Below, one piece after another: positions 1 to 15,240 of a stretch of 15,240 bases of DNA. Source of the stretch: Promethearchaeota archaeon. GTDB taxonomy: Archaea > Asgardarchaeota > Lokiarchaeia > Sigyniarchaeales > SOKP01. The notes under the pieces were generated by a model. The model saw only the letters and a list, made by a program, of their open reading frames with translations, was not told the origin of the DNA and did no database searches. The position numbers were made by a program, and so were the translations under genes. Where the stretch lies: assembly GCA_048938005.1 (NCBI GenBank), contig JBHLMQ010000052.1, positions 1-15,240 on the forward strand. Direction: 5' to 3'. Every line of letters starts with the position of its first letter. The stretch's first letter is position 1.

Positions 1-119
1 GCATGACCATGTTTCCCACTTTTTGATCTTTCAGTGCTTTTAATTTGGCATGGTTCTTCATCAACCATAATGTATTGACCCGCTTTTAATTTTTGTATCT
101 CTGTTCTCCTAATAGACAA
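1..119 (-). CDS. eif5a: Translation factor aIF5A/eIF5A, N-terminal part (runs off the left window edge)
   Basis: Manual translation of the - strand from TTG at 119 gives MSIRRTEIQKLKAGQYIMVDEEPCQIKSTERSKSGKHGHA. This contains the GKHG hypusination motif (Lys codon at 12-14). An in-frame TAG at 126-128 bounds the start. Not in the ORF track. Confidence 0.95.
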   Translation of the reverse strand, partial: MSIRRTEIQKLKAGQYIMVDEEPCQIKSTERSKSGKHGH

Positions 120-272
120 TTCCTTCTACACCTTAGTTTATTTATTTTTTATCCACAATATTTTTAATTTTGACATTTCTTTTAATTTATGATATATTAT
201 ATTTTTTCAAAAAAAAATATTAGTTTTTGAGAATTATTCAAAATACAATAAAAAATTTAAAGCTGGGATTGA

Positions 273-1646
273 ATGGTCTTAGAAAAGCTTGGTAGATCTT
301 TAGATAATGCAATTCGAAAAATTAGACGCCTCCCAACAGTGGATAAAGATGCTATAAACGCTCTTATTCAAGATCTACAAAGAGCACTATTAAGTGCTGA
401 TGTCAAAGTGGAACTTGTTTTCGAAATGACAGAAAATATTAAAAAAGAGGCAATGAATACTAAACTTCAGAAAGCAAGAAGGAGAGATTTCGTAATTAAA
501 TTAATACACGATGAACTCGTGCAACTTCTAGGAGGAAAACCTGCTCCTATAAGAATAAAACCTAATAAAAAGAACGTCATATTGCTTGTTGGCATCCAAG
601 GTTCAGGAAAGACAACAACAGTTGCAAAAATAGCAAAATATTATAAAAGTAAAGGATATAACGTCGCAACATTGACGACTGATACTTGGCGACCTGGAGC
701 TTATGAACAATTAGTCCAATTATCAGAACCATTAGGTATAAAATGTTATGGTAATCCCAATGAAAAAAATGCCATTAAGATTGCAATTCAAGAAACAAAG
801 AAAGCAATAAATGATGGAAATGATATTATAATCGCAGATACTGCAGGCAGACATAAAGAAGAAAAAGAATTAATGAAAGAAATGGCAATTCTAGAACAGA
901 AATTAAAACCAAATGAAGTCATATTAGTTGTTGATGGGACCTTAGGACAACAAGCTTATACTCAAGCAGAAGAATTCGCTAAAACTACAAATTTGGGAAG
1001 TATTATTGTCACCAAATTAGATGGAACCGCGAAGGGTGGAGGTGCTTTATCAGCATGCGCAGCTGTAAATGTAGGTATTCGTTTCATAGGTGTTGGTGAA
1101 AAAATTGATGATTTTGAAGGTTTCGAGCCATCTAATTTCGTAGGAACATTACTCGGCATACCAGATATTGAATCTTTAGTACAAAAGGTGCAAGAAGCAG
1201 AAGTTGACATAGAACCAGAAGTTATCAAGCGTATGGTACATGGTAAATTCACTCTTGATGACCTTTATTTACAGTTGAAAAGTATAAAGAAAATAGGAAA
1301 GTTTAAGCAAATACTAGCTATGATGGGTGGCGGGAATATCCCAGATGCTTTGAAAGAGGACGCTGAAGCGAATCTTGCAAAATGGGAAGTTGTTCTTAAT
1401 TCTATGACAAAAGAAGAAAAAGAGAGTCCAAAAATCATCAAAAAAACTAGAAAAAGACGGATTGCTATAGGAAGTGGAACTGATTACTCTGTAATAAACA
1501 AAATGCTTGCGCAATTTCAACAGATGAAAAAATTTATGAAAAGATTTATTCAAATGCAGAAAAAAGGAAAAGCAATACCAGGGATGCCTGGATTTCCTGG
1601 TGGAAAAGCTGCAGCTGATTTTATGAAAAAGTTAGGCAAATTTTAA
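273..1646 (+). CDS. srp54: Signal recognition particle 54 kDa protein (NG GTPase + M domain)
   Basis: MVLEKLG archaeal/eukaryote-type N-terminus, ALLSADV, G1 GIQGSGKTTT, DTWRPGA, G3 DTAGRH, G4 TKLDGTAKGGG, GVGEKIDD, and an M domain with FTLDDL, SMTKEE and RRIAIGSG plus a Met/Gly-rich tail. Confidence 0.97.
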   Translation: MVLEKLGRSLDNAIRKIRRLPTVDKDAINALIQDLQRALLSADVKVELVFEMTENIKKEAMNTKLQKARRRDFVIKLIHDELVQLLGGKPAPIRIKPNKKNVILLVGIQGSGKTTTVAKIAKYYKSKGYNVATLTTDTWRPGAYEQLVQLSEPLGIKCYGNPNEKNAIKIAIQETKKAINDGNDIIIADTAGRHKEEKELMKEMAILEQKLKPNEVILVVDGTLGQQAYTQAEEFAKTTNLGSIIVTKLDGTAKGGGALSACAAVNVGIRFIGVGEKIDDFEGFEPSNFVGTLLGIPDIESLVQKVQEAEVDIEPEVIKRMVHGKFTLDDLYLQLKSIKKIGKFKQILAMMGGGNIPDALKEDAEANLAKWEVVLNSMTKEEKESPKIIKKTRKRRIAIGSGTDYSVINKMLAQFQQMKKFMKRFIQMQKKGKAIPGMPGFPGGKAAADFMKKLGKF

Positions 1647-1662
1647 AAATCAATAATTATCA

Positions 1663-2337
1663 TTGAATTTGATTATATTGGTCAATTTTCTATTGTTAAT
1701 TGATAAAATTTTAAATTATACTAAAAGAGATATCGATCAAGGATATACTCCTCAAATTATTTATAAATTATGTTCTTGTATAAGAGAAGCTTTCTGTTTA
1801 TCTTATGACATAAGGAAAGACAATGTTTTATATTTATTTTTTCAAAAAGAGCATGTTTTAATTAAATTTGAAGGAACTAAATTACGTTATTTAGGTCCTG
1901 ATGAAAGATCTCAAGCATTACTTTTAGAGAAAGCTTTGAATAATGTGAAAAATAATTTCTTTATTGAAAATGATCAATGGAGGAAATCAACTCCTGGAAT
2001 TTTTTTCAGAAAATTTATTGATATCTCTTCTTTTATAAATTTCCTTAATTCAATAATGAAAGGAAGAAACTTTCTGATAATAGATAATCCACAAAATGTT
2101 AAGGAAAGTGTAGAAGACTTCAATTCAATTAAAATTTTTATCGGAAACATGCAAAACGACTTTTTTCTCATTCCTATATATTCTATATCAAGAGATAATT
2201 CTAAAATGATAGAATTATTCAAAGAACTGAAAAATATAAAACTTATATCACTTTCAAAAATTCAAGAGGTAGAAAATAAAATTTTATATATTAATTTTAG
2301 AAAAGATCAACAAGGAATTCCCTCTAAAAATTTGTAA
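1663..2337 (+). CDS. TrmY-like (tRNA pseudouridine-54 N1-methyltransferase, SPOUT/DUF358) protein, divergent; start may be TTG at 1678
   Basis: LCSCIREAFCLSYDIRKD, IKFEGTKLRYLGPDERS..LLEKAL and STPGI match TrmY signatures (AFxLSHxxRxD, LxPDERS, STPGI). The C-terminal FxLGDHxG and SLG motifs are not recognisable. Confidence 0.75.
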   Translation: MNLIILVNFLLLIDKILNYTKRDIDQGYTPQIIYKLCSCIREAFCLSYDIRKDNVLYLFFQKEHVLIKFEGTKLRYLGPDERSQALLLEKALNNVKNNFFIENDQWRKSTPGIFFRKFIDISSFINFLNSIMKGRNFLIIDNPQNVKESVEDFNSIKIFIGNMQNDFFLIPIYSISRDNSKMIELFKELKNIKLISLSKIQEVENKILYINFRKDQQGIPSKNL

Positions 2338-2338
2338 T

Positions 2339-3733
2339 ATGATTTTAAAAAACGCGAAAATTTATTCTGAAGGTTTAGTACATAAAGGGGCCATTCTCAT
2401 CGCTAATGGAATTGTAAGAACAGTTATATTTAAACCTCAAGAAAAAGATTTAAAAAAATTAGCTAAAAAAAATCAAGATAACAAAGAACTCGATTGTCAG
2501 AATAAATTAGTTTTACCTGGGATAATCGATATCCATTCTCATTTGCGGGATATGAATCAAAGTGAAAAAGAAACATTTTTAACTGGAACTAAAGCGGCTG
2601 CTTTTTCTGGGATTACGACTGTGTTTAATATGCCGAATACAAAACCTCCAGCAATTACATCTGAGCAGATTAAATTATGGATGAAAAAAGCAGAAAACAA
2701 TATTTATGTAAACGTTGGATTCATAGCGGGAGTCCCTAAAGGAATTGATAAAGATGAGATTAAAAAAATTGTAAATTTAGGGATTATAGGGTTTAAAATT
2801 TACCCACTTAATTCTTTAAACGAAATAAATTGGACAGATTCAAGGAATCTACAAAAAATACTTAAAATTTCATCTGAATTCCAAGTTCCAATATTTATAC
2901 ATGCTTCATATCCATTATCTAAGGTAGAAAGAACAAAAATTATTCAAGATTTCAATCACCAGAAATTAAATATTTTAAAACTTCATAATAGATTAGATCC
3001 AGTAAGAGCAGAAGAGAAATACGTTGAATTTGTCGTTAAAAATTATTTAGAATTAATTAGTAATAATGATTTGGATCCCACTACGTATCCAATTATCCAT
3101 TTCTGTCATATAAGTTGTATTGAAAGTTATCTAACAATTAAAAAAGCAATAATAGCAAATAAAAACTTAAAAATATCTTTTGAAGTTACGCCTCATCATC
3201 TACTTTTATCCAATAAAATTATATTAAGTAATAATAATTTCGGAAAAGTATTGCCTCCATTAAGAGAAGAAGAACATCCTAAATTTTTATTTAATGAACT
3301 AACAAAAGGGAGAATAAAATTAATAGGAACTGATCATGCTCCACATACTTTAGAAGAAAAATCACAAGATTATTTCAAGGCACCATCTGGGTTCCCCGGT
3401 TTTGAAACATATCCATTAGTGATACTTGATAAGGTATTTAATTTCCAACTTTCATTAGAAATTTTCGTTAAAACAACCTCAGAAAATCCTGCAAAATTTT
3501 TTAATTTAAAGAATAAAGGTTTTATTAAAGAGGGTTTTGATGCTGACTTAATTATTGTTGATAAAGTTCCAGAATACAAAATAAATTCTCAGAATTTTAA
3601 AACTAAAGCAAAATTTTCTCCTTTTGAAGCATATCCTACTTCTGTTCACATTTGGAAAGTATTTATAAAAGGAAATGAATTCAATTTGGAAAATTCTCTT
3701 CCAAGTGGAGAAATTATCAAGAGGATGTTATAA
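2339..3733 (+). CDS. pyrC: Dihydroorotase (cyclic amidohydrolase, amidohydrolase superfamily)
   Basis: PGIIDIHSHLRD (HxHxR), GITTVFNMPNTKP, GFKIY (candidate carboxylated Lys), HFCHIS, EVTPHHL, PPLR, GTDHAPH, SENPAKFF and GFDADL. ATG lies 1 nt after the upstream stop. Confidence 0.85.
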   Translation: MILKNAKIYSEGLVHKGAILIANGIVRTVIFKPQEKDLKKLAKKNQDNKELDCQNKLVLPGIIDIHSHLRDMNQSEKETFLTGTKAAAFSGITTVFNMPNTKPPAITSEQIKLWMKKAENNIYVNVGFIAGVPKGIDKDEIKKIVNLGIIGFKIYPLNSLNEINWTDSRNLQKILKISSEFQVPIFIHASYPLSKVERTKIIQDFNHQKLNILKLHNRLDPVRAEEKYVEFVVKNYLELISNNDLDPTTYPIIHFCHISCIESYLTIKKAIIANKNLKISFEVTPHHLLLSNKIILSNNNFGKVLPPLREEEHPKFLFNELTKGRIKLIGTDHAPHTLEEKSQDYFKAPSGFPGFETYPLVILDKVFNFQLSLEIFVKTTSENPAKFFNLKNKGFIKEGFDADLIIVDKVPEYKINSQNFKTKAKFSPFEAYPTSVHIWKVFIKGNEFNLENSLPSGEIIKRML

Positions 3734-3792
3734 AATATATATGTGTAAACGGCATAATTATATATAAACAATATGATTTTAAGATCTCTACC

Positions 3793-4425
3793 ATGTCTAA
3801 TGAAAATGAATTTAGCTTAGAAGAAGGCATAATATTAATAAAATTTGCCCGGGAAAATATAGAATTTTTTTTAAAAAATAATAGGCGTATTCCTATTCCA
3901 GAAGTTATAAAAGATAAATTTTCAGATAAATACGGTGCTTTTGTAACACTAAATATATACGATGCTATTGGCAATCCCTTAAGAGGGTGTATTGGCTATA
4001 TTGAACCAACTTACCCACTATATGATGTAATTCATAAAGTATCAGTCAGCTCAGCTATAGAAGATCCGCGATTTCCTTCCGTTTCACTTGAAGAAATGGA
4101 TAATATAGTAATTGAATTATCAATTTTAACTCCTCCTAAATTATTAGAAGTAAGTGATCCTAAAGAATATCTTGATAAAATTGTTATTGGTAGAGATGGA
4201 TTAATTGCAGAAAAAGGAATGAGAAGAGGGCTACTTCTTCCTCAAGTACCTGTAGATCATGGTAGAAATTGGGATGTTAAAACTTTTCTCTCTCAGACAT
4301 GTTCAAAAGCTTGGCTAGATAGTGATGCTTGGAAGGATCTGAATACAAAAATTTACTCTTTTCAAGCCATTCTTTTTGAGGAAAAAGAACCACGTGGCGA
4401 AATTTTTAGAAAATATCTTACTTAA
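3793..4425 (+). CDS. AMMECR1-domain protein (TIGR00296 family)
   Basis: GAFVTL, the hallmark LRGCIG, SAIEDPRF, IELSILT, GRDGL, GLLLPQV and C.KA motifs. Confidence 0.95.
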   Translation: MSNENEFSLEEGIILIKFARENIEFFLKNNRRIPIPEVIKDKFSDKYGAFVTLNIYDAIGNPLRGCIGYIEPTYPLYDVIHKVSVSSAIEDPRFPSVSLEEMDNIVIELSILTPPKLLEVSDPKEYLDKIVIGRDGLIAEKGMRRGLLLPQVPVDHGRNWDVKTFLSQTCSKAWLDSDAWKDLNTKIYSFQAILFEEKEPRGEIFRKYLT

Positions 4426-4506
4426 AAGTTTACTTTTATTTAATTATCTTTAACATTTTTTTATGAATAATTACTGTTTTACAATGATATAACGGGATAT
4501 AAATTT

Positions 4507-6012
4507 ATGGGAACTCCAGATAAAATACTCTCAATTGATATATCTTCTAAAAAAGTTAAAGTTGCTATTATTTCTGATAGATTAGAGTTAGAATCTGTTT
4601 CAGTACACGGATATGATATCATTGATGAGGATGTTGATGGTTTTGCTAAGCGATTTAATATGGATGATATGTGGGATAAAGTTATATTGGGTATAAAAAA
4701 TGTGATAAAAGAAAATAAACCAGAAAACATTATTGGTATATCTTCATGTGGTCAAAGAATAGCAACAGTTTTTTTAGATAAACAAGGAAATGAAATTTAT
4801 GGAGGGCCTAACACAGATATTAGGGGTATTGATTCAGCTTATCTAATTGAAGATAAATTCTCTGAAGAAGAATTATTCAAAATAACTGCCCATACCCCAT
4901 CGTTGATGTTTACATTAGCTAGGTTGTTATGGTTTCAAGAAGAGGAAGGAGACAAGTATGAAAGTATAGGTAAAGTATTAATGTTAGATGATTGGATTGT
5001 CTATAAATTCACTGGAGAATTTTATACCGACTATACATCGGTTGGAGAATCCCAACTTTTTGATATAAGTAAAAGAAATTGGAGTTCAGAGATTATTGAC
5101 ACTTTTGAAATAAAACCTGAAATCCTTCCTGAAATTGTCGATTCAGGCACAATTGTAGGAGAATTAAAGTCAGATCTAATAAATAAATTCGGCATAAACC
5201 AAAAAAATATTCCTGTATTAAAAGGATGCGGTGATACTCAAGCTAATTTATTAGGTATGGGAGTAATTGAGGAGGGGAATATCGGAATTAGTCTAGGAAC
5301 AACCGCCCCGGTGCATTTAGTTGTGAATAAACCGATAACTGATCCTGATCTGAATTTCTGGTCAGATTGCCACGTTATTAAGGACAAATGGTTAATTGAA
5401 GCTAATACAGGAGGTACAGGAAGGGTTTTTGATTGGTTCAAGGATGCATTTATATCAGATTCTAAAAGGGATGCAAATGAAATTATGAATAATTTAATAA
5501 GTAGAAGTAAACCTGGAGCAGGCTCGATTTTTGCATATTTGGGCCCAGAACTTATGGCTTTAAAAGATCAAACATCAATAAAGAGAGGAGTTTTTGTTTT
5601 TCCACCACCTAGCATGATTGGAGAAGAATTACCCAAATTAGAAAATTTTGCTCGAAGTGCGATTGAGAGTATTTGTTTTGGGATTAATGAAAATTTTCAA
5701 GCACTTCATCAATTTACCCAATCAGAAATAAATACATTTTGCTCAGGGGGTATGTCAAAATCGAGAGAATTTTGTGAAATTTTAACAAATATTTTAAGTA
5801 AAGAAATAATGGTGCCAATTGTTAGGGATTCTGCATTTATAGGAAATGCTATTATTACTCTATTAGGATTAAAACATTATTCCAATTATAAAGAAATTAT
5901 TAAAGATCTCATAAAGTATGAGACTTTCAATGTCGAAGCATCAATTTCTGAAGAATATAAAAGTATCTACACCCAATGGAAGAATCTGAAAAATAAAATT
6001 GACGATCTTTAG
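4507..6012 (+). CDS. FGGY-family carbohydrate kinase, YoaC/LsrK-like branch
   Basis: ILSIDISS (phosphate-1-like), SSCGQR, PNTDIRG, LARLLWF, DWIVYKFTGE, GCGDTQA, SLGTT, PITDPDLN, WFKDAF, RSAIESI and SGGMSKS; 501 aa is typical for the family. Subfamily assigned from recalled similarity only. Confidence 0.9.
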   Translation: MGTPDKILSIDISSKKVKVAIISDRLELESVSVHGYDIIDEDVDGFAKRFNMDDMWDKVILGIKNVIKENKPENIIGISSCGQRIATVFLDKQGNEIYGGPNTDIRGIDSAYLIEDKFSEEELFKITAHTPSLMFTLARLLWFQEEEGDKYESIGKVLMLDDWIVYKFTGEFYTDYTSVGESQLFDISKRNWSSEIIDTFEIKPEILPEIVDSGTIVGELKSDLINKFGINQKNIPVLKGCGDTQANLLGMGVIEEGNIGISLGTTAPVHLVVNKPITDPDLNFWSDCHVIKDKWLIEANTGGTGRVFDWFKDAFISDSKRDANEIMNNLISRSKPGAGSIFAYLGPELMALKDQTSIKRGVFVFPPPSMIGEELPKLENFARSAIESICFGINENFQALHQFTQSEINTFCSGGMSKSREFCEILTNILSKEIMVPIVRDSAFIGNAIITLLGLKHYSNYKEIIKDLIKYETFNVEASISEEYKSIYTQWKNLKNKIDDL

Positions 6013-6023
6013 ATTTTATTTTT

Positions 6024-6809
6024 CTATTTTTTTAAAAAGGGTTCGAGATTTTTTCCCTTTTTCCAATACCACTTAAAAAGTTCACGAGTCCAATTAGCAA
6101 ATGCCTCGTTATTATCTACTAAACATTGACTATAATCAATTTTTCCATCCTTACTTAAAAATAAAATTGCTCCCTTATCAGAAGCTATAACTGAAACATC
6201 AATATGAGGTAATACTCTTACGTTTTGAAAAACATCAATTTTATCATAAAACGCATGACGATCTCTAAACTGTTTTCCTACTTTTACAGAATCCATTAAA
6301 ATCGCTTTTTCTATAAGAACTTTAATTTCAATTGATTGGTTGTTGATTTTTCTTTCAACAATAGGTAGGATGGAATTTTGGAACTGATCTGAAATTGCAA
6401 GTATAAATTCTTCTGAATTTTTAACTAAATCTGACCACTTCTGGATATTTTTCATTGTTTGATTATTAATGGTAACCGTCTTCAGCTTTCCAAGTTGTAG
6501 AAATAAATTAATTGGAATTGAGCTAATATCATGATTATTTAAGAATTCTTCAAAATTTAAGATAAATTCAAAATAATTCAAAATTTCATAAAGAATTTTT
6601 CCAATACTCGTAATTTCATACTCATTGTCGATGGTTTTTGAAATTAACTTTTTGTTAACTAACCTTTTGAGATTTCGAGAAATCTCAGGACCCGGAATAT
6701 CTAATTCTTTCTCTAACTCACTATGTCTCTTATTTTCTTTATATATACATTTGAAGACTTCGTATCTCCCTTTATTTGTAAATTCTATAAGAAGGTTATT
6801 TAACTCCAA
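6024..6809 (-). CDS. Archaeal transcriptional regulator: N-terminal winged HTH (ArsR-like) plus DUF1724/FilR1-middle-like domain (COG4742-like)
   Basis: N..RYEVFKCI..HSELEKELDIPGPEISRNLKRLVNKKLISK..YEITSIG is a wHTH. It is followed by FLNNHDISSIP and a C-terminal FANWTRELFKWYW, both typical of this archaeal family. Divergent from the SCP2 gene. Confidence 0.82.
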   Translation of the reverse strand: MELNNLLIEFTNKGRYEVFKCIYKENKRHSELEKELDIPGPEISRNLKRLVNKKLISKTIDNEYEITSIGKILYEILNYFEFILNFEEFLNNHDISSIPINLFLQLGKLKTVTINNQTMKNIQKWSDLVKNSEEFILAISDQFQNSILPIVERKINNQSIEIKVLIEKAILMDSVKVGKQFRDRHAFYDKIDVFQNVRVLPHIDVSVIASDKGAILFLSKDGKIDYSQCLVDNNEAFANWTRELFKWYWKKGKNLEPFLKK

Positions 6810-6959
6810 TTGAACACAGTTCCTTAGATTTTATTCATACTCCTATTAAATATTAAAATATTCTTATTTAAAATGATTAGTAATTAGCTATAATCAATTA
6901 TAACAAGTTAAAACTGGTTTTTATAAAATCAAAATAATTCAAGGGATTGTTTAAATCTC

Positions 6960-7010
6960 GTTAAACTTATTTATCAATTAGAAATAAATATTATTAATTA
7001 AAATGAGGTA
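6960..7010 (+). promoter_or_regulatory. Candidate BRE/TATA promoter and Shine-Dalgarno site for the SCP2 / dehydrogenase-aldolase unit
   Basis: ttaaaCTTATTTAt at about 6961-6974 and GAGGT at 7005-7009, ahead of ATG 7019. The AT-rich background weakens the TATA call. Confidence 0.4.
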
Positions 7011-7018
7011 TTTAATTT

Positions 7019-7369
7019 ATGTCGAAATTTGAAGATATTCCAAGTTGTTTGAAAAATATTGAAGATAGATATAATAATACTGAAAAAATTAGAAAAAAAC
7101 TAGCAAACTATAATGAACCAATTCAAGTTACTTTTTTAGATACTGTACGTAAGATATTGATTTTAGTAAACGGAGATCAAGGAATTGAAGTAAAAGATAA
7201 TACAGGAGATGACTCTGCATCAGTAAAAATTGATTTTGCTACCGAAAAAACCCTTATGGATTTGTTTAATAAGGAAATTGGTGCTGTGAAAGCATATAGT
7301 TCTGGGCAAATAAAAGTCGTTGAAGGAAAAATTCGCAATTTGCTCAAACTAAAAAGTTTATTGTTCTAA
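7019..7369 (+). CDS. SCP2 sterol/lipid-binding domain protein (standalone)
   Basis: 116 aa. ASVKIDFATEKTLMDLFNKEIGAVKAYSSGQIKVVEGKIRNLLKL matches the SCP2 pattern (adv.i......f..l..g.l....Af..Gkikv.Gd....lkl). Confidence 0.82.
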   Translation: MSKFEDIPSCLKNIEDRYNNTEKIRKKLANYNEPIQVTFLDTVRKILILVNGDQGIEVKDNTGDDSASVKIDFATEKTLMDLFNKEIGAVKAYSSGQIKVVEGKIRNLLKLKSLLF

Positions 7370-7414
7370 ATGTTATTTTATTTAATTTAAGAAATGATAG
7401 ATTAAGTGAGGTTT

Positions 7415-9088
7415 ATGAAAGCTTTTGTAACAGCAAATTTAACTCCAGAAGTGCTAAATAAATTAAAAAGTTTAATGGAAGTTGTCTATGAACCATGGGT
7501 TAAGACTGGAGAGATTTATTTTGATGCAAAAGAATTAGCAAAAAAACTAGAAGGAGTGGATATTTTTATAACTGAAACTGATGATGTTAAAAAAAAGGAA
7601 TTTTTTGAACTCACTAATATAAAATTACTCATTTCATGCAGGGGAGATCCATTTAACGTTAATCTTAAAGCTGCGACAGAAAAAGGAATAGTTGTCCTCA
7701 ATACTCCATTAAGAAATGTTGATGCAGTTGCTGATTTAACAGTTTGTTATATTTTAATGCTTGCTCGTAGAATACAAGAAATAGATAGAATCCTCCATTC
7801 TGAGGATTTTGAAGTGTCAGATTTTGAAGATTGGGTTGGATATTTCGAAAAATTCAGAGGCATCGAACTGGGAGGAAAAACAGTTGGGATTATAGGTTTA
7901 GGTCAAATAGGAAGAAGAGTAGTAGATCGTTTAAGACCCTTTGGGGTTAATTGTCTTATTTATGATCCATTTGTCCCTAATGAAATAGCAAAAGATTATG
8001 GTGATATTGTTGATATTGATTTTCTCGTGAGGAATTCTGATTTTATAACTGTCCATGCAGCTGCAACGGATGATAATGATAATCTTATTAATGAAGACCG
8101 TATTATTTCAATGAAAAAAACTGCTTACTTAATAAATACTGCCAAAGGGAGTTTGATTGATTATGAGGCCTTAGAAGAAGCCTTAGAACAAAAAAAAATC
8201 GCTGGAGCAGCTCTAGATGTTTTTCCTTTAGAACCTATTGATGAAGATAATGAATTTTTAAAATTCAACACTGCAATCGTGTCTCCTCATATAGGGGGGG
8301 ATACTTATGAAATAATTAAGCGTCAATCAGAGATGCTTCTAAATGATATTAAATTATGGTTAGATAATAAAAATCCAAATCACTTAATGAATCCAGAGGT
8401 ACTTTCAGGAAAAAAAGTAATTACAAATGTTAGAATAAATAAGTTAAAAAAAGAGATTGTCGATCTTTGCAAGATCTTATTAAAAGAGAAACATGTAATT
8501 GGTTCTGCTGGAAATGTTAGTACAAGAGTAAAAGATGATGAGAATGAATTAATCCTTATAACACCTAGTAATGTTAATTACGCTGAAATGAAACCAGAAG
8601 ATATCCTTATCATCGACATGGATGGTAAAGTTATCGAGGGTGATAGAAATCCTTCTGTTGAAAAATATATGCATCTTAATGTATATAGAGAAAGAGATGA
8701 TGTTAATGCAATTATTCATGCTCATAGTATTTATAGTACCGTATTGAGTGCATTAAATCTCTCTTTACCACCAGTTATGGAAGAATTAGTACCATATATA
8801 GGTGGAGAAGTGCAATGTGCGGAGTACGGAGAAGCTGGCTCGGATGAGTTGGCTGAAACAGTTATTAATGCTTTGGAAGAAAAAAATGCTGTTCTTCTCG
8901 CAAACCATGGAAATTTATGTTGTGGGAGTCATCTAGAAGGGGCAAAAACTGTTTTAGATTATCTTGAAAGAGGAGCAAAAATTTATTACTTGGCCAAACT
9001 TGTTAAAGATCCTAATTTATTACCTGAAGATACAGTAGATTATGAAATGGAAATATTTGAAATCTTTAAAGAATCCAAAAAAATTTAA
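7415..9088 (+). CDS. Fusion of a D-isomer-specific 2-hydroxyacid dehydrogenase-family domain (YoaD-like) and a class II aldolase (FucA-like)
   Basis: N-domain (to about 8400): CRGDPFNVN, NTPLRN..AVA, GKTVGIIGLGQIG, YDP, ITVH, INTAKG, ALDVFPLEP and SPHIGG. C-domain (about 8440-9088): GNVSTR, ITPS, PSVE, HAHS and LLANHG. ATG 7415 follows GAGGT at 7408-7412; the ORF track uses GTG 7406. Confidence 0.92.
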   Translation: MKAFVTANLTPEVLNKLKSLMEVVYEPWVKTGEIYFDAKELAKKLEGVDIFITETDDVKKKEFFELTNIKLLISCRGDPFNVNLKAATEKGIVVLNTPLRNVDAVADLTVCYILMLARRIQEIDRILHSEDFEVSDFEDWVGYFEKFRGIELGGKTVGIIGLGQIGRRVVDRLRPFGVNCLIYDPFVPNEIAKDYGDIVDIDFLVRNSDFITVHAAATDDNDNLINEDRIISMKKTAYLINTAKGSLIDYEALEEALEQKKIAGAALDVFPLEPIDEDNEFLKFNTAIVSPHIGGDTYEIIKRQSEMLLNDIKLWLDNKNPNHLMNPEVLSGKKVITNVRINKLKKEIVDLCKILLKEKHVIGSAGNVSTRVKDDENELILITPSNVNYAEMKPEDILIIDMDGKVIEGDRNPSVEKYMHLNVYRERDDVNAIIHAHSIYSTVLSALNLSLPPVMEELVPYIGGEVQCAEYGEAGSDELAETVINALEEKNAVLLANHGNLCCGSHLEGAKTVLDYLERGAKIYYLAKLVKDPNLLPEDTVDYEMEIFEIFKESKKI

Positions 9089-9099
9089 AATTTTTTTTT
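9077..9099. terminator. Candidate bidirectional oligo-T terminator at convergent overlapping stops
   Basis: A7-TTT-AAAA-T9. The two stops share TTAA at 9085-9088. T9 (9091-9099) follows the + stop, and T7 on the - strand (A run 9077-9083) follows the - stop. Confidence 0.5.
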
Positions 9100-9927
9100 A
9101 AAATTGTTTCCGTTTTTTTTCCTATTTAATGATTTTAAGGCAATTTTGGTTGATTCCTCTGCTTGTTGCTTGGTAACCATTCCAATCGTTACAGCACATA
9201 TCTTATGATTAGCAATATATTCAAATGCAAAACTAGGTTTAATTTCTCCTGCTGCAAGAGTTTTCATACCTATAAAATAAAAATTTTTAGTACTATCTAC
9301 AATTTCTTCTAAATATTTTGCATTTCCCATTAAAAATCCATTTGCATTAAAAGGTATCAAAAATACTCTTACATTTAGATTATTTTCTATACTATATTTA
9401 ATTGTTGGAATTGGATCATGAGTTGCAATACCTGGAATAATTCCATAGCCAGAGATTTCATCTAAAAGTCTAACTAATTCTTTTCCTTTATTATCAGAAA
9501 TCACACCATGCACAAATATTAATTTTGCTCCAATTTCGATTAACGCTTTAATACCAGGATCCTTTTCCGGATTTGTAGATCCTGTTATAACATAATCACC
9601 ATACATTTCACTCATCATCTTAGCAGCTTCCATAATTTTACCATTGGGGATTACTTCAATACCACATGCTCCATTTAGATAACTAACCTTTAAAATCTCC
9701 AGCATAGCTTCTGGATTATATAAAAATCTTCTACGCCATTCAAATGCTTTAAATCCAAATTGTCCGGCACCTATAAATGGAGAAGTTCCTGTAGAAACTA
9801 GCGGTATATTTACACCATCAATATTACAAAAAATATTAATCCCCTCTTTGAGTGTAATATAAATTTTATTTAAATTTGATATGAGATTATTATTAACCGA
9901 ATTATAAATTTTTAAGTTTATTTCCAT
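9085..9927 (-). CDS. Uncharacterised aldo/keto-reductase-like TIM-barrel protein; start uncertain
   Basis: IPLVSTGTSPF (AKR beta-1-like), LIFVHG, PGIATHDP, LIPFNANG, IGMKTLAAG and AVTIGM..QQAEE follow the order of AKR-like barrel motifs. The AKR catalytic tetrad is not clearly identifiable. Confidence 0.6.
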   Translation of the reverse strand: MEINLKIYNSVNNNLISNLNKIYITLKEGINIFCNIDGVNIPLVSTGTSPFIGAGQFGFKAFEWRRRFLYNPEAMLEILKVSYLNGACGIEVIPNGKIMEAAKMMSEMYGDYVITGSTNPEKDPGIKALIEIGAKLIFVHGVISDNKGKELVRLLDEISGYGIIPGIATHDPIPTIKYSIENNLNVRVFLIPFNANGFLMGNAKYLEEIVDSTKNFYFIGMKTLAAGEIKPSFAFEYIANHKICAVTIGMVTKQQAEESTKIALKSLNRKKNGNNFKKKF

Positions 9928-10018
9928 TGAAATTTAATTTCAGAAACCATTTAAATATAAAAAGAATATTATTCATACAGTATAATAGAAATTCAACTTT
10001 ACTTCATATTTACTAAAT

Positions 10019-10023
10019 AGGAG
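10019..10023 (+). promoter_or_regulatory. Shine-Dalgarno-like site
   Basis: AGGAG 6 nt upstream of ATG 10030. Confidence 0.55.
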
Positions 10024-10029
10024 ATTAGA

Positions 10030-12108
10030 ATGCCACAAATTACTGGTGTTATTTGCGATGCTATCACTTTTTATAATCTAAATTTTGAAATCATCCATAA
10101 CTTAAATTCCCTTCTCATCCGTCATATTCTTACTAATGATGCGAGTTCTCTCCTTCTTTTTGGAAATATTGGTGAAGGAAATTTAATATCAATAACTGAA
10201 AAGATTAAACTTATTGAATTAGTATTAGAAATTACACAAAAAAAAATTCCTCTTCTTATAGGAATCTATGATGATCATATTGATGAAATAATAAATCAAA
10301 TTGAAAATTTGGGAAAAAAATTTGAAAATCTAAACTTTATGATTTCTCCACCACTTTTAGAAAAAAAATCAAAAGAAATGATAAAGTCTTATTTTGAAAA
10401 TATTTTAGGTTCGATTAATCCTAAGAATCAGATTTATTTGATAAATAATCCTCCTCAATTTGCTGGAAATGAGATCGAGCCAAATTTACTAAAAAATTTA
10501 ATGGAATATCCTAATTTGAAAGGATTAAATGATTCTTATTATAACATTAAAATCTGTAAATCCTATATTGAAAATTTAAATAATGATTTTTCCGTTTTTT
10601 GCGGGATGGAAGAAAATTTTCAGACATTTTTCCAACTTATCCCATTAAACCAGAGAAAATATAGCGGGATTGTCTCAGGTATCAGTAATTTAATCAATTT
10701 GTGCTCAAAACTATATAATTATGCTTTAGAAGACAATATCTTAGAACTTTTACAATTACAGGAACAAATAAATGATATCAGAATTAAAATCTATGATTTC
10801 AAAACCGATGGAGTTAAAAAATTAATTGGTTTAAAATATGCTTTTCTGCATTTATACAAGGATTTAATTTTAAGAACTAATAAAGATATAAATCTAATTA
10901 CTGAACAATTACAAACTCAAATTGATCCCATAACTAAAGAAAGAATTGAGGCAACTGTGAATTACTTACTAAACCGTAAGCAAATATATAAAATATATTT
11001 CATCGGTAAAAAAGACCTTTACCAATTTGAGGATATTATCGATAGATTTTCACAAATTGATGTTTTAGTCAAACAAGGTAAAGTAAAAAAAATCAAAGGG
11101 CCGTTTATTGTTGATGCCAATACACTCTACAGAGTAAAATTTGAAAATAGCCAATTGGTATTCAGATTTCGTACAAGCCAATTTTTCAAGTTTGAAAATT
11201 TAGTTAAGGAGAAGCTTTTATATCCATTTTTAGATACAAGCTTAAATCCTAATGACATTGACTTAATAGAGAAAGTAAAAGAGATCATTAATACAAAAAC
11301 AGGTATGTATATCTTCAGTAAAGAAAGACCTCCAATAATTCCGGTATGTGATTTAATTTATTATGATGAAACTAAGGAAACTGTTCCTTATATTTTTTCT
11401 GTGCAAGAATATATTAGGGGAAAACCTTTATTTCAACTCATAAACCAGTATATCAATGAAGGGAAAAACTTATATGCTAGAAAATTTCTGGATCTATTTA
11501 ATAATTTAGGTGAACATTTAGGAAATTTACACAAGATAAAATTTGATTCTTATTACAATAATATTAAGGATATAGGTAAAAAGAAAAAAAAAACTTATCC
11601 AGAATATTTTGAAAGTAAATTGGAGGAAAAAATACAAGAGGCATGGAAAAACAAAATAGATTTTTGCGATGAAATTAGGGATTTCTATCAAGATAATAAG
11701 GTATTAATCGATGATGAAACTGAATATGTTCTTTTACACAATGATTTTAAAAGCCAAAATATTATAGTTAAAGAAGAATTAGGTGCTATAAAAATTAATG
11801 GTATTGTAGGTTTTGATAATTGGAGTATTGGTAGCAGAGCTCAAGATTTTATTAAAATTGATTATTCGATACTGAAGCCTTTGAATAACCCCTCATTTTA
11901 TAGCTCTTTTTATAATGCATATTCAAAATTTTACACCGTGGATGAAGAATTTAAGAAAAAAATCGAATTATATAAACTATTATGGCTTTTAGATGAATAT
12001 AATTTTGAATCAGAGTTAATAAAAAAGGCAGATCACATGGATATTGTAGTTAAACCTACACCCACATTAGAGAATTATCTTTTTGAAATGAAAGCAATAA
12101 TTCGGTAG
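10030..12108 (+). CDS. Fusion of a DapA/NanA-like (class I aldolase) TIM barrel and an aminoglycoside-phosphotransferase/choline-kinase-like domain, with catalytic residues substituted
   Basis: N-domain: FGNIGEG, EK..LIE, KIPLLIG, ISPP, YLINNP, PNLKGLNDS, VFCG and GIVSGISN. C-domain: LVFRF, KEKLLY, IIPV, QEYIRGKPL, LGEHLGNLHKI, LLHNDFKSQNIIV, GIVGFD and QDF. Confidence 0.85.
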   Translation: MPQITGVICDAITFYNLNFEIIHNLNSLLIRHILTNDASSLLLFGNIGEGNLISITEKIKLIELVLEITQKKIPLLIGIYDDHIDEIINQIENLGKKFENLNFMISPPLLEKKSKEMIKSYFENILGSINPKNQIYLINNPPQFAGNEIEPNLLKNLMEYPNLKGLNDSYYNIKICKSYIENLNNDFSVFCGMEENFQTFFQLIPLNQRKYSGIVSGISNLINLCSKLYNYALEDNILELLQLQEQINDIRIKIYDFKTDGVKKLIGLKYAFLHLYKDLILRTNKDINLITEQLQTQIDPITKERIEATVNYLLNRKQIYKIYFIGKKDLYQFEDIIDRFSQIDVLVKQGKVKKIKGPFIVDANTLYRVKFENSQLVFRFRTSQFFKFENLVKEKLLYPFLDTSLNPNDIDLIEKVKEIINTKTGMYIFSKERPPIIPVCDLIYYDETKETVPYIFSVQEYIRGKPLFQLINQYINEGKNLYARKFLDLFNNLGEHLGNLHKIKFDSYYNNIKDIGKKKKKTYPEYFESKLEEKIQEAWKNKIDFCDEIRDFYQDNKVLIDDETEYVLLHNDFKSQNIIVKEELGAIKINGIVGFDNWSIGSRAQDFIKIDYSILKPLNNPSFYSSFYNAYSKFYTVDEEFKKKIELYKLLWLLDEYNFESELIKKADHMDIVVKPTPTLENYLFEMKAIIR

Positions 12109-12235
12109 CTTTTTTCTTTGTAAATCAAAAGCCTCTTTAGAAATTTTGGAAATTTCCAATTGTAATTAATAATTATAGAAAAATAAATTATATTTAATAT
12201 CATAATTTTATTTTTTTTAAAAAAGAATAGAGAAT

Positions 12236-13162
12236 TTGATGTTGAGATTTAAAAAGGAATTAAAAATAGCTATTGAACTAGTTCGGAAGGCAACAGAAAT
12301 TACAGAGTGGTTTAGAGTAAAAGCATTGGAATCCTTTTTAAAACCGGATCAATCACCTGTTACAATAGCCGATTTTGCATCTCAAATATATATAGTATCA
12401 AAGTTAAAAGCCCATTTCCCGGAGGATGAAATAATAGCAGAAGAAGAAAATATTGATTATATAGATCTCAAGTCAGAACATCTGATAAAACAATGTTTTG
12501 ATGAATTAGAAGTAGAAGAATTAAAGATAATTAAAGAAAACATTGGGTATCAAGGTAAATCTTCTGAGCGTCAATGGACAGTAGACCCTATTGATGGTAC
12601 GGCAGGATACCAAGAGGGATTGTCCTATTCAGTAGGGATTGGACTTATGATAAATTCCCATCCAAAGATATGTGCTATTGGTGTCCCAAATTATAATAGA
12701 AAATCCTTAGCAATATTTTCAGCAGAAGAAGGTCAAAAAGCTCATGTTTCATACGATAATAAGGATCTTAGACCGATTCGAGTTAGTCAAAAAGAAGATA
12801 TAAAGAATATCCGGTTATGTCATTCATTACATTATGATAAACCATGGGTTTTGAATTTTGCACAAAATATTGGTATAAATAACTTCATCCAAATTGATAG
12901 CATGGCAAAATTTTGTATGGTCGCTGATGGAAGTGCTGATCTTTATATAAAACCGTTGGATGCGGCACATTCTTTTACATGGGATTTTCTGCCAGGAGAC
13001 TTAATTGTAAGAGAAGCAGGAGGAGATATAACGGACTTAAATGGTAAACGTTTAAAATTTAAAAAAGAAAAATGTCTATGGACCGCACCTGGAATAGTTG
13101 CTTCAAATGGTTTAATACAAATAGAAATTATAGACTTAATTAAAAGAAACCGTCTAAATTGA
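12236..13162 (+). CDS. Inositol monophosphatase superfamily phosphatase, HAL2/SAL1-type 3'(2'),5'-bisphosphate nucleotidase-like
   Basis: KPDQSPVTIADFASQ, IIAEE, WTVDPIDGT, IDSMAKF, ADLY and WD..G.LIVREAGG.ITDLNG. Start is TTG 12236 or ATG 12239. Confidence 0.9.
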   Translation: MMLRFKKELKIAIELVRKATEITEWFRVKALESFLKPDQSPVTIADFASQIYIVSKLKAHFPEDEIIAEEENIDYIDLKSEHLIKQCFDELEVEELKIIKENIGYQGKSSERQWTVDPIDGTAGYQEGLSYSVGIGLMINSHPKICAIGVPNYNRKSLAIFSAEEGQKAHVSYDNKDLRPIRVSQKEDIKNIRLCHSLHYDKPWVLNFAQNIGINNFIQIDSMAKFCMVADGSADLYIKPLDAAHSFTWDFLPGDLIVREAGGDITDLNGKRLKFKKEKCLWTAPGIVASNGLIQIEIIDLIKRNRLN

Positions 13163-13176
13163 AAGAATTAATTAAA

Positions 13177-14265
13177 TTAAATATGCGTGTAGTTTAAAAG
13201 ATTTGTTTGTTTAGCTTTTTGATCTCTTAGAAAGTTTGATAATTTAATCCCGACAAGTCTAACTCTCTTATTATTATTTGAAAATTCTTTAAATAATTCT
13301 AAAATAATATTTATTACACAGTTTTCATCTTGAATATGAAAAGGAAGTGTTTTCGAACGAGTATACGTGTAAAAACCTTCAAATCTTATTTTTAAAGTAA
13401 TAGTCTTATAAGCTATCTGGTGTTTTTTTACTGATTTATGTATTCTTTTATTAATTTCTTCAAATCTAGATAATATTTCATTGAAATTATCGGTGTCCTT
13501 AAAAAATGTTCTTTCTGCACTAATCGATTTTCTCTCTTCATTGAATTCTTTCACCCTACGTTTATCTAAACCATTAACAACATTCCAGATCCACTTCCCT
13601 TGTTTTCCAAATAACTCAATCATTTTAGTTAAAGGTGTATTAATTATATCTCCAATTTTTTTCATTCCCTTTTTATAGAAAAATACTTTGGTTTTCTTAC
13701 CAATACCCGGAATGCGAGTAATATCCATATCTTTTAAAAAATTAGTAATATTACTAGGTTTTATAATTGTGATACCATTAGGCTTATTTTCATCAGAAGC
13801 AATTTTTGCTAAAGATTTGGTAGGAGCAATACCTACTGAGATTGTAATACCTACCTTTTTAAAGACTTCCTTTTGAATCTCTTTTGAAATTCTTTCGGCT
13901 TCCTCATAATCTTTAGTAATTTCTGTTAATTCTAGATATGCCTCATCTGCACCTATTCTCTGAAATTCATTACTATAAGTCTCAAGGATATTCATTACTT
14001 CTTTCGATACTCTTAGATATTTTTCTACATTAGGTCTTAGATATATTCCATGAGGACATCTTCTAAAAGCTTGAGATATAGGCATTGCAGAGTGTAAACC
14101 ATATTTTCTAGCTTCATAATTACAAGTAGATATTACTCCTCTTCCTTTCCCTTCTTTTGGATCTGCCCCTATTATAACAGGTTTGTCTTTATAATGTGGG
14201 TTATCTCTTATTTCAACCGCAGCAAAAAAACAATCAAGATCACAGTGTAAAATAAGACGAATCAT
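13177..14265 (-). CDS. dinB: Y-family DNA polymerase IV
   Basis: LHCDLDCFFAAVE, STCNYEARKYGLHSAMP, DEAYLE, SVGIAPTKSLAKIASD.NKPNG, IPGIGKKT, RKSISAERTF, TLKIRF and VRLVGI, with a C-terminal PIP-box-like QTNLLNY. Confidence 0.96.
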   Translation of the reverse strand: MIRLILHCDLDCFFAAVEIRDNPHYKDKPVIIGADPKEGKGRGVISTCNYEARKYGLHSAMPISQAFRRCPHGIYLRPNVEKYLRVSKEVMNILETYSNEFQRIGADEAYLELTEITKDYEEAERISKEIQKEVFKKVGITISVGIAPTKSLAKIASDENKPNGITIIKPSNITNFLKDMDITRIPGIGKKTKVFFYKKGMKKIGDIINTPLTKMIELFGKQGKWIWNVVNGLDKRRVKEFNEERKSISAERTFFKDTDNFNEILSRFEEINKRIHKSVKKHQIAYKTITLKIRFEGFYTYTRSKTLPFHIQDENCVINIILELFKEFSNNNKRVRLVGIKLSNFLRDQKAKQTNLLNYTHI

Positions 14266-14452
14266 TATTTACTGAGAATAGTTAATAGAATTCATTTATA
14301 AATAATATTTTTCAAATTTGATATTTTTCTATAATATTTAAAAAAAAAGACTTTCATGAATTAATGTAAATAGAAATTATATGATTTTTTATAGAAAATT
14401 AGGACCATCATTTTCAAAATATATTTTTAATGGACTTTTAATTATTTAATTT

Positions 14453-15133
14453 ATGGTTTTAAACAAAGAAGATCAGCTTAGGATCGAAGTTGTTAAAGGA
14501 GCAAAAGCAATATTCATGAAAGGATTAGTAGAATCTGGTGAAGGGAATGTTAGTGTGAGAAATGGCAAGAAAGAGGAGATTTTTATCACTCCTTCATTTA
14601 ACCAATATGATACTTTAAAAAAAGACGAAATAGTCAATCTAAATTTTGATGGGGAGCCTTTAAGTGCTGGAAAATTACCATCAACTGAAGCAAAAATGCA
14701 TATTGCTATCTATAAATCCAGACCAAAAGTTCAAGCGGTAATTCACACTCACTCGCCTTTTGCAACTATGCTCTCAATAGTAAGAAAAGGAATTCCAATA
14801 ATAATGGAAGAAATGTTCATATTTTTAGGCGGACCTATCAATGTTTCTGAATTTGGAGAAGCCCACACAGGAGAAATTGGTGAAGTTGCTCTTAAAGCTT
14901 TGGGTAAAAAAAATGCTGCTTTATTAGCTAATCATGGTGTTATTGTTTGTGGAAAATCATTAGACCATGCTGTAAAATTTGCTGAATTGGTAGAAAAACT
15001 TGCTAAAATGTATTGGGGGGCTTTACAAATAGGAGAACCCAAAATTATTTCAAAAGAACATCTTGATCGATTTCAAAAACTTTACGAGAGTTTGTTTGCT
15101 AACTATCCTCGACGTAAACATAAAACGACATGA
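14453..15133 (+). CDS. Class II aldolase/adducin family protein (L-fuculose-1-phosphate aldolase-like)
   Basis: GNVSVR, FITPS, PSTE..MH..IY, AVIHTHS and ALLANHG; the catalytic Glu and three Zn-binding His equivalents are present. Confidence 0.93.
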   Translation: MVLNKEDQLRIEVVKGAKAIFMKGLVESGEGNVSVRNGKKEEIFITPSFNQYDTLKKDEIVNLNFDGEPLSAGKLPSTEAKMHIAIYKSRPKVQAVIHTHSPFATMLSIVRKGIPIIMEEMFIFLGGPINVSEFGEAHTGEIGEVALKALGKKNAALLANHGVIVCGKSLDHAVKFAELVEKLAKMYWGALQIGEPKIISKEHLDRFQKLYESLFANYPRRKHKTT

Positions 15134-15240
15134 AAAGCAGTAAATATTGAATTTATTACGAAGATTCAATAAAAATTAAATTATTTCCTACGATATTATT
15201 AAATCGGAGTATAAATTTTATAATTAACTTTTATAATTAA

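Follow-up and report, generated by a model that had tools for sequence, protein, structure and literature searches.

In the DapA family of aldolases, catalysis depends on an essential Schiff-base lysine and an essential tyrosine, and APH and protein-kinase folds likewise depend on an essential aspartate that binds Mg. The known sugar-acid modules, kdgK-kdgA (semi-phosphorylative Entner-Doudoroff) and nanA-nanK, employ PfkB- or ROK-type kinases and not kinases of the APH fold. Here we analyse a 15,240-nucleotide stretch of DNA from a Promethearchaeota archaeon (Asgardarchaeota; GCA_048938005.1, contig JBHLMQ010000052.1, positions 1 to 15,240), hereafter the window, and in it a gene at 10030..12108 (+) whose predicted product fuses a DHDPS/NAL-type barrel to an APH-fold kinase. 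A first-pass annotation, made from the letters alone, had described both halves as catalytically impaired, had proposed a metabolite-sensing pseudoenzyme and had recognised the architecture from no characterised protein; in agreement with the last point, full-text searches of the literature retrieved no paper on the DHDPS + APH architecture or on a DHDPS-family pseudoenzyme, and we found no characterised protein of this kind. Because essential residues are missing and the protein is under purifying selection, it fits an operational definition of a pseudoenzyme, and we lean, with some reserve, towards a protein that is most likely non-catalytic and acts by binding.

The open reading frame begins with ATG and encodes 692 residues followed by a stop codon, and a Shine-Dalgarno-like GGAG, read directly from the sequence, stands 6 nt before the start (10020..10023, +), as the first-pass annotation had noted; the frame as a whole is matched by more than 100 full-length orthologues at 50-90% identity. 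Residues ~1-320 (10030..10989, +) form a DHDPS/NAL-type (beta/alpha)8 barrel with a C-terminal helical bundle, and residues ~321-692 (10990..12105, +) an APH-fold, protein-kinase-like small-molecule kinase domain. Both halves match their family models in sequence and in fold. Pfam DHDPS (PF00701) covers residues 5-254 at 70.4 bits (cut-off 22.1) and Pfam APH (PF01636) residues 432-609 at 35.7 bits (cut-off 23.2); the AlphaFold2 (AF2) model of the barrel has a predicted local distance difference test score (pLDDT) of ~90 and resembles N-acetylneuraminate lyases, DHDPS and 2-keto-3-deoxygluconate (KDG) aldolase in Foldseek (target-normalised template-modelling score ~0.83), and the model of residues 301-692, computed from an alignment that included the separate kinases described below, has a pLDDT of 87.9 and a predicted template-modelling score of 0.85 and retrieves APH(2'')-IVa (E 5.5e-11), then APH(9), YtaA, ethanolamine kinase, homoserine kinase and FN3K. 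With narrower models, the protein scores 76.9 bits against the 206.15 of the DapA equivalog TIGR00674, stays below every NCBIfam equivalog cut-off, misses the gathering cut-off of the fructosamine kinase family PF03881 (21.0 vs 22.4 bits) and matches none of the NCBIfam kinase models at E <= 1.

Profile alignments upheld each residue call of the first-pass annotation in both domains. On strand beta6, where the family carries its Schiff-base lysine in the motif G-x-K-D/E-S/A, the fusion protein has N167 (AAT, 10528..10530, +), and phmmer, profile and family alignments agree in placing its GLNDSY on GVKDSS of 4uxd and GFKDSS of 4xky. The tyrosine of YNxP falls on I138 (ATA, 10441..10443, +) in the profile and family alignments, the family profile reading 'iylYnnp' against FLYNMP and LIYNIP. 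A single-sequence alignment placed this tyrosine at N139 instead and was overruled by the family profile and by the 11 Lys-bearing relatives, all of which have [LYV]YNNP or LYHNP at this site. The carboxylate-binding loop G[ST]TGEG, present in 10 of the same 11 relatives and as GNTGEG in the eleventh, is degenerate in the window (GNIGEG, residues 45-50, 10162..10179, +, from sequence and family alignment), where residues 44-50 read FGNIGEG and both hydroxyl residues of G-[ST]-T-G-E are replaced, by N and I.

To place these residues in the family we compiled a motif table of 63 fused proteins, five separate aldolase-kinase pairs and one stand-alone barrel paralogue, in which 44 of the fused proteins make up the window's genus. 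Lysine is found at position 167 in none of the 44 (N37/I6/D1). The tyrosine position varies (I22/Y10/H5/V2 for the four commonest residues), as do positions 46 (N19/S12/R7/D3) and 47 (M14/T12/I8/L3) of the carboxylate loop, counted in the same way. Because the lysine is lost and constraint on the tyrosine and the carboxylate loop has gone as well, the barrel is predicted to be no longer capable of aldolase chemistry. The earlier description of the barrel as binding a keto acid or sugar acid finds no favour here, since within the genus no part of the pocket is less conserved than the GTTGEG loop and the tyrosine. Nor does K164 appear to take over from the lysine, as had been suggested: it varies in the genus (K35/R8/Q1), the next clade has mainly Ser in its place, and its position on strand beta6, three residues before 167, is nearer the bottom of the barrel.

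On its catalytic face the barrel carries residues that are newly fixed in the genus. C9, in C9-D10 at the end of strand beta1 (10054..10059, +; family alignment and DSSP), is present in 44/44 genus proteins, where the other 25 family members have V, A or C followed by Pro. The motif YYNIK (residues 170-174, 10537..10551, +; family alignment) belongs to a segment with F42/Y2 at position 170, Y43/N1 at 171 and K41/R3 at 174, positions that hold S/G/D/N-type residues outside the genus. S216, at the end of strand beta8 (10675..10677, +; family alignment, with the strand taken from DSSP of the model), is Ser in 43/44 and Pro in all 25 other members. C9, S216, F170, Y171 and K174 all map to this catalytic face, each being placed where a barrel strand ends on its C-terminal side or just after that point, and N139, N140, P141, N147, D168, E194, N220 and N223, neighbours of the ancestral pocket in the alignment, are invariant or nearly so. 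Both sets of residues would suit a barrel whose rebuilt pocket has acquired a new chemistry independent of a Schiff base, or else a new specific ligand; since we can name neither the ligand nor the reaction, N, I and D are all accepted at position 167, and we know of no superfamily member that works without the lysine, we regard such neofunctionalisation as improbable. A broader proposal, in which the rebuilt face (C9, N167, F/Y170, Y171, K174 and S216, each fixed in 37-44 of 44 species) would be a new ligand-binding or catalytic site and, together with a kinase fold that binds nucleotide without transferring phosphate, would make up an undescribed archaeal metabolite sensor or regulator, is speculative, and we hold it to be unlikely though worth stating.

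In the kinase half the catalytic loop HxDxxxxN is intact, as the first-pass annotation had claimed: H570, D572 and N577 of HNDFKSQN (residues 570-577, 11737..11760, +) align in the profile alignment with HrDFhaQN of 3csv and HGDLHGTN of 6iy9. The Mg-binding, DFG-equivalent Asp is replaced by G594 (GGT, 11809..11811, +), which the same alignment places on the Asp of GvIDFqD (3csv) and GIVDFTD (6iy9). Two residues further on, D596 (GAT, 11815..11817, +) is Asp in 42/44 genus proteins and in 24/24 outside the genus by the family alignment. The loop before strand beta2/3, GPFDGKIN in 5/5 separate kinases, is remodelled to GPFIVDAN in the window (residues 357-364, 11098..11121, +; family alignment) and reads GP[YF] followed by variable residues in the genus. 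R379 in LVFRFRT (11164..11166, +) probably occupies the beta3 'Lys' position, a placement made by strand pattern; it is R43/K1 in the genus and R or K family-wide, separate kinases included.

Across the family the kinase site erodes mainly within the genus. Position 594 is Asp in 35/44 genus proteins and 22/24 outside, and losses in the genus comprise N572 in eight proteins, G594 in eight, N594 in one and Y570 in three, with N572 and G594 together in L018 and L020. The pattern H570-D572-N577-D594-D596 is intact in 26/44 proteins of this crown vs 22/24 elsewhere, and catalytic residues are correspondingly lost in 18/44 vs 2/24. Parsimony counts 12 changes at H570, D572, D594 and D596 in the crown (tree length 7.77) and two outside it (6.55), an excess with a one-sided binomial p = 0.015, to be read with the caveats that the crown was recognised from its barrel state and that related sequences are not independent. 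On this pattern, once one half of a fused enzyme had died, the constraint on its partner half seems to have been released. Among the possibilities raised beforehand was that orthologues keep both Lys and Asp: for the Asp this applies to most of them, and the Lys is absent from all 44 proteins of the genus.

These data bear directly on the possibility that the protein is still an enzyme, with an atypical kinase that is Mg-independent or uses D596 or another metal arrangement, and with the Lys-less barrel as a substrate-binding, regulatory or oligomerisation module. The intact HxDxxxxN of the window's protein, the near-invariance of D596, the 26 genus proteins that keep all canonical kinase residues, purifying selection on the kinase half (dN/dS, the ratio of nonsynonymous to synonymous substitution rates, of 0.09-0.39 across pairs) and the confidently predicted fold (pLDDT 87.9) all speak for it, and CASK, which has GFG for DFG and is still active, provides a precedent. 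Set against them, three catalytic positions (H570, D572 and D594) are lost independently, twice in the same protein in L018 and L020; the GPFDGKIN loop is remodelled as well; the changes concentrate in the clade with the dead aldolase (12 vs 2); and D596, which the first-pass annotation had considered as a substitute, is ancestral and not compensatory, L001 (G594 with N596) carrying Asp at neither place. An active atypical kinase thus has, in our judgement, a minority chance that is low without being slight.

Each of the two altered codons is a single base from the canonical one (AAT vs AAA/AAG; GGT vs GAT), which would be expected if N167 and G594 were assembly or sequencing errors, or rare strain variants, in a canonical enzyme. 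This explanation has a negligible probability. Codons 167 and 594 are both spanned by contigs assembled from four runs, which belong to two studies distinct from the likely source, and none of the 40 differences listed (out of 61) falls at either, so that at the level of contigs the check which the first-pass annotation had called for revealed no listed variant; N167 is found in 37/44 species of the genus and Lys in none; and G594, present in 8/44 of the genus, is common to the closest relative, L001 (90% identical), which has N167 as well.

The order of the losses was read from a maximum-likelihood tree of the 63 fused proteins, with the three most divergent of them taken as the root. Lys, Tyr and GTTGEG are all kept in a four-row basal clade and in L070. 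Lys was lost once, at the base of the other 56 rows, with Ile in its place in 14/14 Lys-less proteins outside the crown, and a further change, from Ile to Asn, falls at the root of the 44-row crown, which corresponds to the window's genus. Within the crown the tyrosine and the carboxylate loop drift while C9, S216, Y171, F170 and K174 are fixed in 41-44 of 44 proteins. The lysine was hence lost before the genus diversified into its 44 species (tree length 7.8 substitutions per site). Three genomes of the related genus g11 (G170, G173 and G175) contain in addition a stand-alone, Lys-bearing barrel paralogue that is 40-44% identical to the window's barrel (e.g., L069:1365-2342, -).

The separate ancestral form of the two halves survives in sister families of the one that holds the fusion. 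In f3 (3/14 genomes) and f4 (G280-G282 of 4) they are encoded by separate adjacent genes, which overlap by a few bases or are divided by two stop codons and a 7-codon spacer; G279 of f4 has a partial kinase match alone. A single 776-aa frame considered in G280 resolved into two genes with two stop codons between them. All five separate aldolases have GSTGEG, YNNP and G[IFL]KDSS, and all five separate kinases GPFDGKIN, HND....N and IDFDNW, and the stand-alone aldolase genes span residues 2-320 of the fusion protein.

The fusion itself is confined to one GTDB family of Asgard archaea, which comprises roughly 135 genomes. A word-indexed search returned 168 relatives, and among the best 120 of these nearly all are ~690 aa long with both Pfam domains and 50-90% identity, every source name being Asgard; a scan of one genome per prokaryote species gave 60 loci, all titled archaeal metagenome-assembled genomes and most of them from named Asgard lineages. 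In a scan of 400 genomes of the phylum, with per-genus counts read by hand from the match tables, a long match (E <= 1e-200) is present in 50/53 genomes of the window's genus (g1) and a fusion match (E <= 1e-100) in 10/10 genomes of g11, ~19/42 genomes of the sister genus g12 and a few genomes each of g3, g5 and g10; the remaining genera of the family gave nothing above DapA-level similarity. The kinase half is likewise isolated. An exhaustive profile search of 1.84 billion cluster representatives yielded 22 at E <= 1e-30, of which three are fused, six stand alone at 385-419 aa and the others are fragments; after a gap come generic 300-350 aa proteins matching APH and Fructosamin_kin. No other DHDPS + APH fusion was found among the best 150 kinase relatives, where the three other long proteins checked (P0166, P0218 and P0235) have no DHDPS domain; the 120 listed matches of a homologue search with the kinase alignment were all fused orthologues and added no distant relatives; and the ESM Atlas returned, for residues 320-692, generic bacterial APH clusters alone and no structure of the fusion protein. 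In the window's own genome the fusion is the sole APH-family match, and a true DapA (300 bits to PF00701) is encoded on another contig, so the fusion barrel is not needed for lysine synthesis.

Selection on the fusion gene was estimated from 16 close pairs by the pairwise Nei-Gojobori method (NG86). dN/dS lies between 0.10 and 0.29, with 0.10-0.13 in three Lys-bearing pairs at a synonymous divergence (dS) of ~0.8 and 0.12-0.29 in 13 Lys-less pairs at dS 0.05-0.77. Between the window and L001 it is 0.20 (barrel 0.15, middle 0.20, kinase C-lobe 0.30), inside the 0.12-0.29 of six neighbour genes in the same genome pair, and this shared range indicates that constraint on the fusion protein is that of any ordinary gene, relaxation being mild at most. 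The first-pass opinion that the gene is no decaying pseudogene is borne out by this comparison. Among the 50 long matches in the genus, no internal stop was found in those listed, and the match is incomplete or split across contigs in two genomes. The sequence occurs in sediment and mangrove habitats, and no RNA runs were found among the listed holders of the gene.

A number of points weigh against a selected, non-catalytic binding protein. NG86 is a simple method, the genes are AT-rich and dS is unequal between the groups compared, and the slightly higher dN/dS in Lys-less lineages could reflect some relaxation. The gene is dispensable in some backgrounds, being lost in 2/53 genomes of the genus and present in ~19/42 of g12: the syntenic slot of G227 retains a remnant of residues 561-692 with stop codons (L081, G227:C1:370500-379000, positions 3108-3503, -) and that of G229 is empty (L082, G229:C65:9000-17000, positions 5007-6447), a third genome, G189, with an assembly gap at the slot having been excluded from this count. 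The downstream gene for a HAL2-like phosphatase is also absent from the G227 and G229 slots. With all canonical kinase residues kept in 26/44 genus proteins, the kinase may remain active in many species, and kinases with Gly for the DFG Asp, such as CASK, can keep weak, Mg-independent activity; our view that no neighbouring residue is likely to substitute for the lost Lys or Asp draws on conservation and strand position. Finally, the substrate of the ancestral pair, discussed below, is suggested by two single-locus contexts and best-hit similarity, best hits predict function poorly in this superfamily, and unrelated genes flank the remaining separate pairs (for f4, a 224-aa gene and one for a CxxCxxCC protein; for other pairs, a GNAT with a deacetylase, or a NUDIX protein with ThiC).

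Taken furthest, such observations would mean that function has been lost and the gene is drifting towards loss, the catalytic substitutions being the first visible damage. Repeated catalytic losses in both halves would fit, as would the remnant in G227, the empty slot in G229, the patchy presence in g12 and the somewhat higher dN/dS of Lys-less lineages. This account nevertheless has to accommodate a long match kept in 50/53 genus genomes with no internal stop in the matches listed, dN/dS values of 0.10-0.29 in the same range as those of neighbouring housekeeping genes, a lysine lost before the whole genus diversified, and residues newly fixed in 41-44 of 44 proteins, a fixation that drift does not yield. 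We therefore rate decay towards loss as rather unlikely.

Returning to the binding pseudoenzyme that we favour, the following course of events may be proposed. An adjacent, translationally coupled pair, a class I Schiff-base DHDPS/NAL aldolase and an APH-fold kinase, fused, and after fusion the barrel lost its Schiff-base lysine. In the window's genus, constraint on the catalytic tyrosine and the carboxylate-binding loop was then lost and the same barrel face was rebuilt with newly fixed residues. With its aldolase partner dead, phosphotransfer by the kinase may have become dispensable, and its catalytic residues were lost repeatedly in the genus, leaving the window's copy with no Mg-binding Asp and a remodelled nucleotide loop. 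As purifying selection keeps the protein despite the lost catalytic residues, we infer that it would work by binding a ligand at the rebuilt pocket, a nucleotide, a partner protein or several of these, and not by turnover.

For the ancestral pair, we suggest tentatively that its two enzymes acted one after the other on a 2-keto-3-deoxy sugar acid, either as a kinase followed by an aldolase or as a lyase followed by a kinase, a function that we find plausible though somewhat short of an even chance. The nearest solved aldolases in the profile search are 4xky, the KDG/KDPG (2-keto-3-deoxy-6-phosphogluconate) aldolase 4uxd and YagE; the Lys-bearing paralogue of G170 lies between a zinc dehydrogenase, with a sub-threshold match to a glucose-dehydrogenase C-terminus, and a major facilitator superfamily (MFS) sugar transporter; and one separate pair begins 18 bases after a BNR sialidase-like gene, opposite a GH2 beta-galactosidase. 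Elsewhere among the separate pairs, a 224-aa protein without Pfam match (L075 and L076 copies tested) is encoded on the same strand upstream of the aldolase (L075:8675-9349, +; L076:6257-6931, -; L077:9660-10334, -), at a distance of ~1.5 kb in one sister-family locus and directly next to it in the other two, and a CxxCxxCC-domain protein is encoded beyond the kinase in at least two of these three loci.

Around the fusion gene, the constant neighbours encode dihydroorotase, AMMECR1, a HAL2/CysQ-like phosphatase and DinB, which are unrelated housekeeping functions. Between AMMECR1 and the fusion gene the window carries a cassette (4507-9927) of an FGGY sugar kinase, a helix-turn-helix (HTH) regulator, an SCP2-like protein, a 2-hydroxyacid dehydrogenase-class II aldolase fusion and a divergent gene, members of which occur in 21-42 of 60 related loci. 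The cassette looks like an optional insert because it is missing from loci where AMMECR1 directly precedes the fusion gene. Synteny was accordingly set aside as a clue to function, and the earlier placement of the gene beside a sugar-phosphate locus does not carry over to the family. Within the cassette, 7406-9088 (+) encodes a 560-aa protein that joins a D-2-hydroxyacid dehydrogenase (phosphoglycerate dehydrogenase/glyoxylate reductase-like) to a class II aldolase resembling FucA, and 9085-9927 (-) is a 280-aa frame divergent from the fusion gene, without Pfam or NCBIfam match, that is kept in 37/60 related loci at 62-90% identity. Another class II aldolase, which stands alone, is encoded at 14453-15133.

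Other neighbours are clade-specific. A ~118-aa gene without Pfam match (L037 and L072 copies tested) stands convergent and directly downstream of the fusion in the Lys-bearing and Lys-to-Ile clades (L037:2416-2772, -; L046:10121-10477, -; L057:10120-10476, -; L071:3066-3428, -; L072:3496-3876, -; and others) and was not in that slot in the examined loci of the window's genus. In the Lys-to-Ile clade a 137-aa longin-domain protein (Fuz_longin_1, E 2.6e-7; copy at L047:10601-11014, -, with homologues in eight other loci) and a 247-aa membrane protein are encoded between the fusion and the phosphatase gene. We considered the 118-aa gene, a metallophosphoesterase, the longin-domain protein and the membrane protein as clues, and none explains function.

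Start codons deserve a separate comment. Among 30 orthologues examined, the codon homologous to the window's ATG is ATA in 11 and ATT in four (L002, L004-L006, L008, L012, L018, L020, L024, L027, L029, L030, L054, L055 and L058; for example L004:8001-8003). A GAGGAG box lies 6-8 nt upstream in most of these 15 and is present before the homologous start in most of the 30, and ATA and ATT appear to be real, if non-canonical, starts. In public annotation the genes of these orthologues begin 42-104 codons downstream and yield 'truncated' proteins of 589-651 aa; the apparent decay of the barrel in orthologues annotated at 589-646 aa was dismissed as a gene-calling artefact of ATA/ATT starts. In L058 an apparent 946-aa protein, in which the target runs on into the phosphatase encoded downstream, likewise proved to be an artefact, of bases read as X.

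We also modelled the barrel part (residues 1-300) and the kinase part (301-692) as a complex. The prediction scored 0.83 (best of three controls 0.00), a mark attained by 58/80 solved complexes and 2/110 mismatched pairs, and its runs share at least 73% of contacts with a partner pLDDT of at least 81. As evidence that the kinase docks on the barrel the result was rejected all the same, since every confident contact of the second chain lies within residues 301-324, which pack against helices 250-299; these residues belong to the aldolase gene, as part of its helical bundle, in the sister families, and the pass therefore reflects the cut point. The model is useful just for putting the predicted domain boundary near residue 320-325.

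Overall, the family appears to keep every stage of the passage from enzymes to pseudoenzyme, to judge by predicted activities: active genes that are still separate, a fusion that is active, a fusion in which the aldolase is dead, and one in which the kinase site is eroding too. All of these stages occur inside a single archaeal order and at one genomic slot, and the family so offers a natural series for studying this transition. Public records name the fusion proteins 'dihydrodipicolinate synthase family protein' or '4-hydroxy-tetrahydrodipicolinate synthase', and any metabolic reconstruction of an Asgard genome that scored them as DapA or as an aldolase would be mistaken. Should the rebuilt pocket bind a ligand, the protein would represent a new regulatory type in the archaeal group closest to eukaryotes.

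Compared with described systems, the fusion barrel shares its barrel-plus-bundle build with the DHDPS/NAL class I aldolases (the Bacteroides thetaiotaomicron 'DHDPS' 4xky and the Picrophilus torridus enzyme 4uxd, profile E 3.5e-25 and 5.5e-25), the 2-keto-3-deoxy-galactonate aldolase YagE being also among its nearest solved relatives, and its Lys-bearing relatives share G-x-KDSS and YNxP with 4uxd and 4xky; it differs from these enzymes in having Asn for Lys, Ile for Tyr, a degenerate carboxylate loop and an attached kinase. The kinase half has the bilobal fold and HxDxxxxN of APH/choline-kinase/fructosamine-kinase-type proteins and departs from them in the Gly at the Mg-binding Asp of the window's copy, in the Arg at the probable beta3 position and in belonging to a small, isolated family. 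Pseudokinases such as CASK similarly present a kinase fold under selection after loss of the metal-binding Asp, with a presumed binding or scaffolding function, whereas here an archaeal small-molecule-kinase fold is joined to a second dead enzyme and its losses are sporadic among close species. Lastly, the sister-family pairs recall the kdgK-kdgA and nanA-nanK modules in adjoining an aldolase and a translationally coupled kinase, and two loci, that of one such pair and that of the G170 paralogue, have a sugar-catabolic context, while the module of the window is, unlike those, fused, catalytically disabled as predicted from its residues, and equipped with a kinase of the APH fold.

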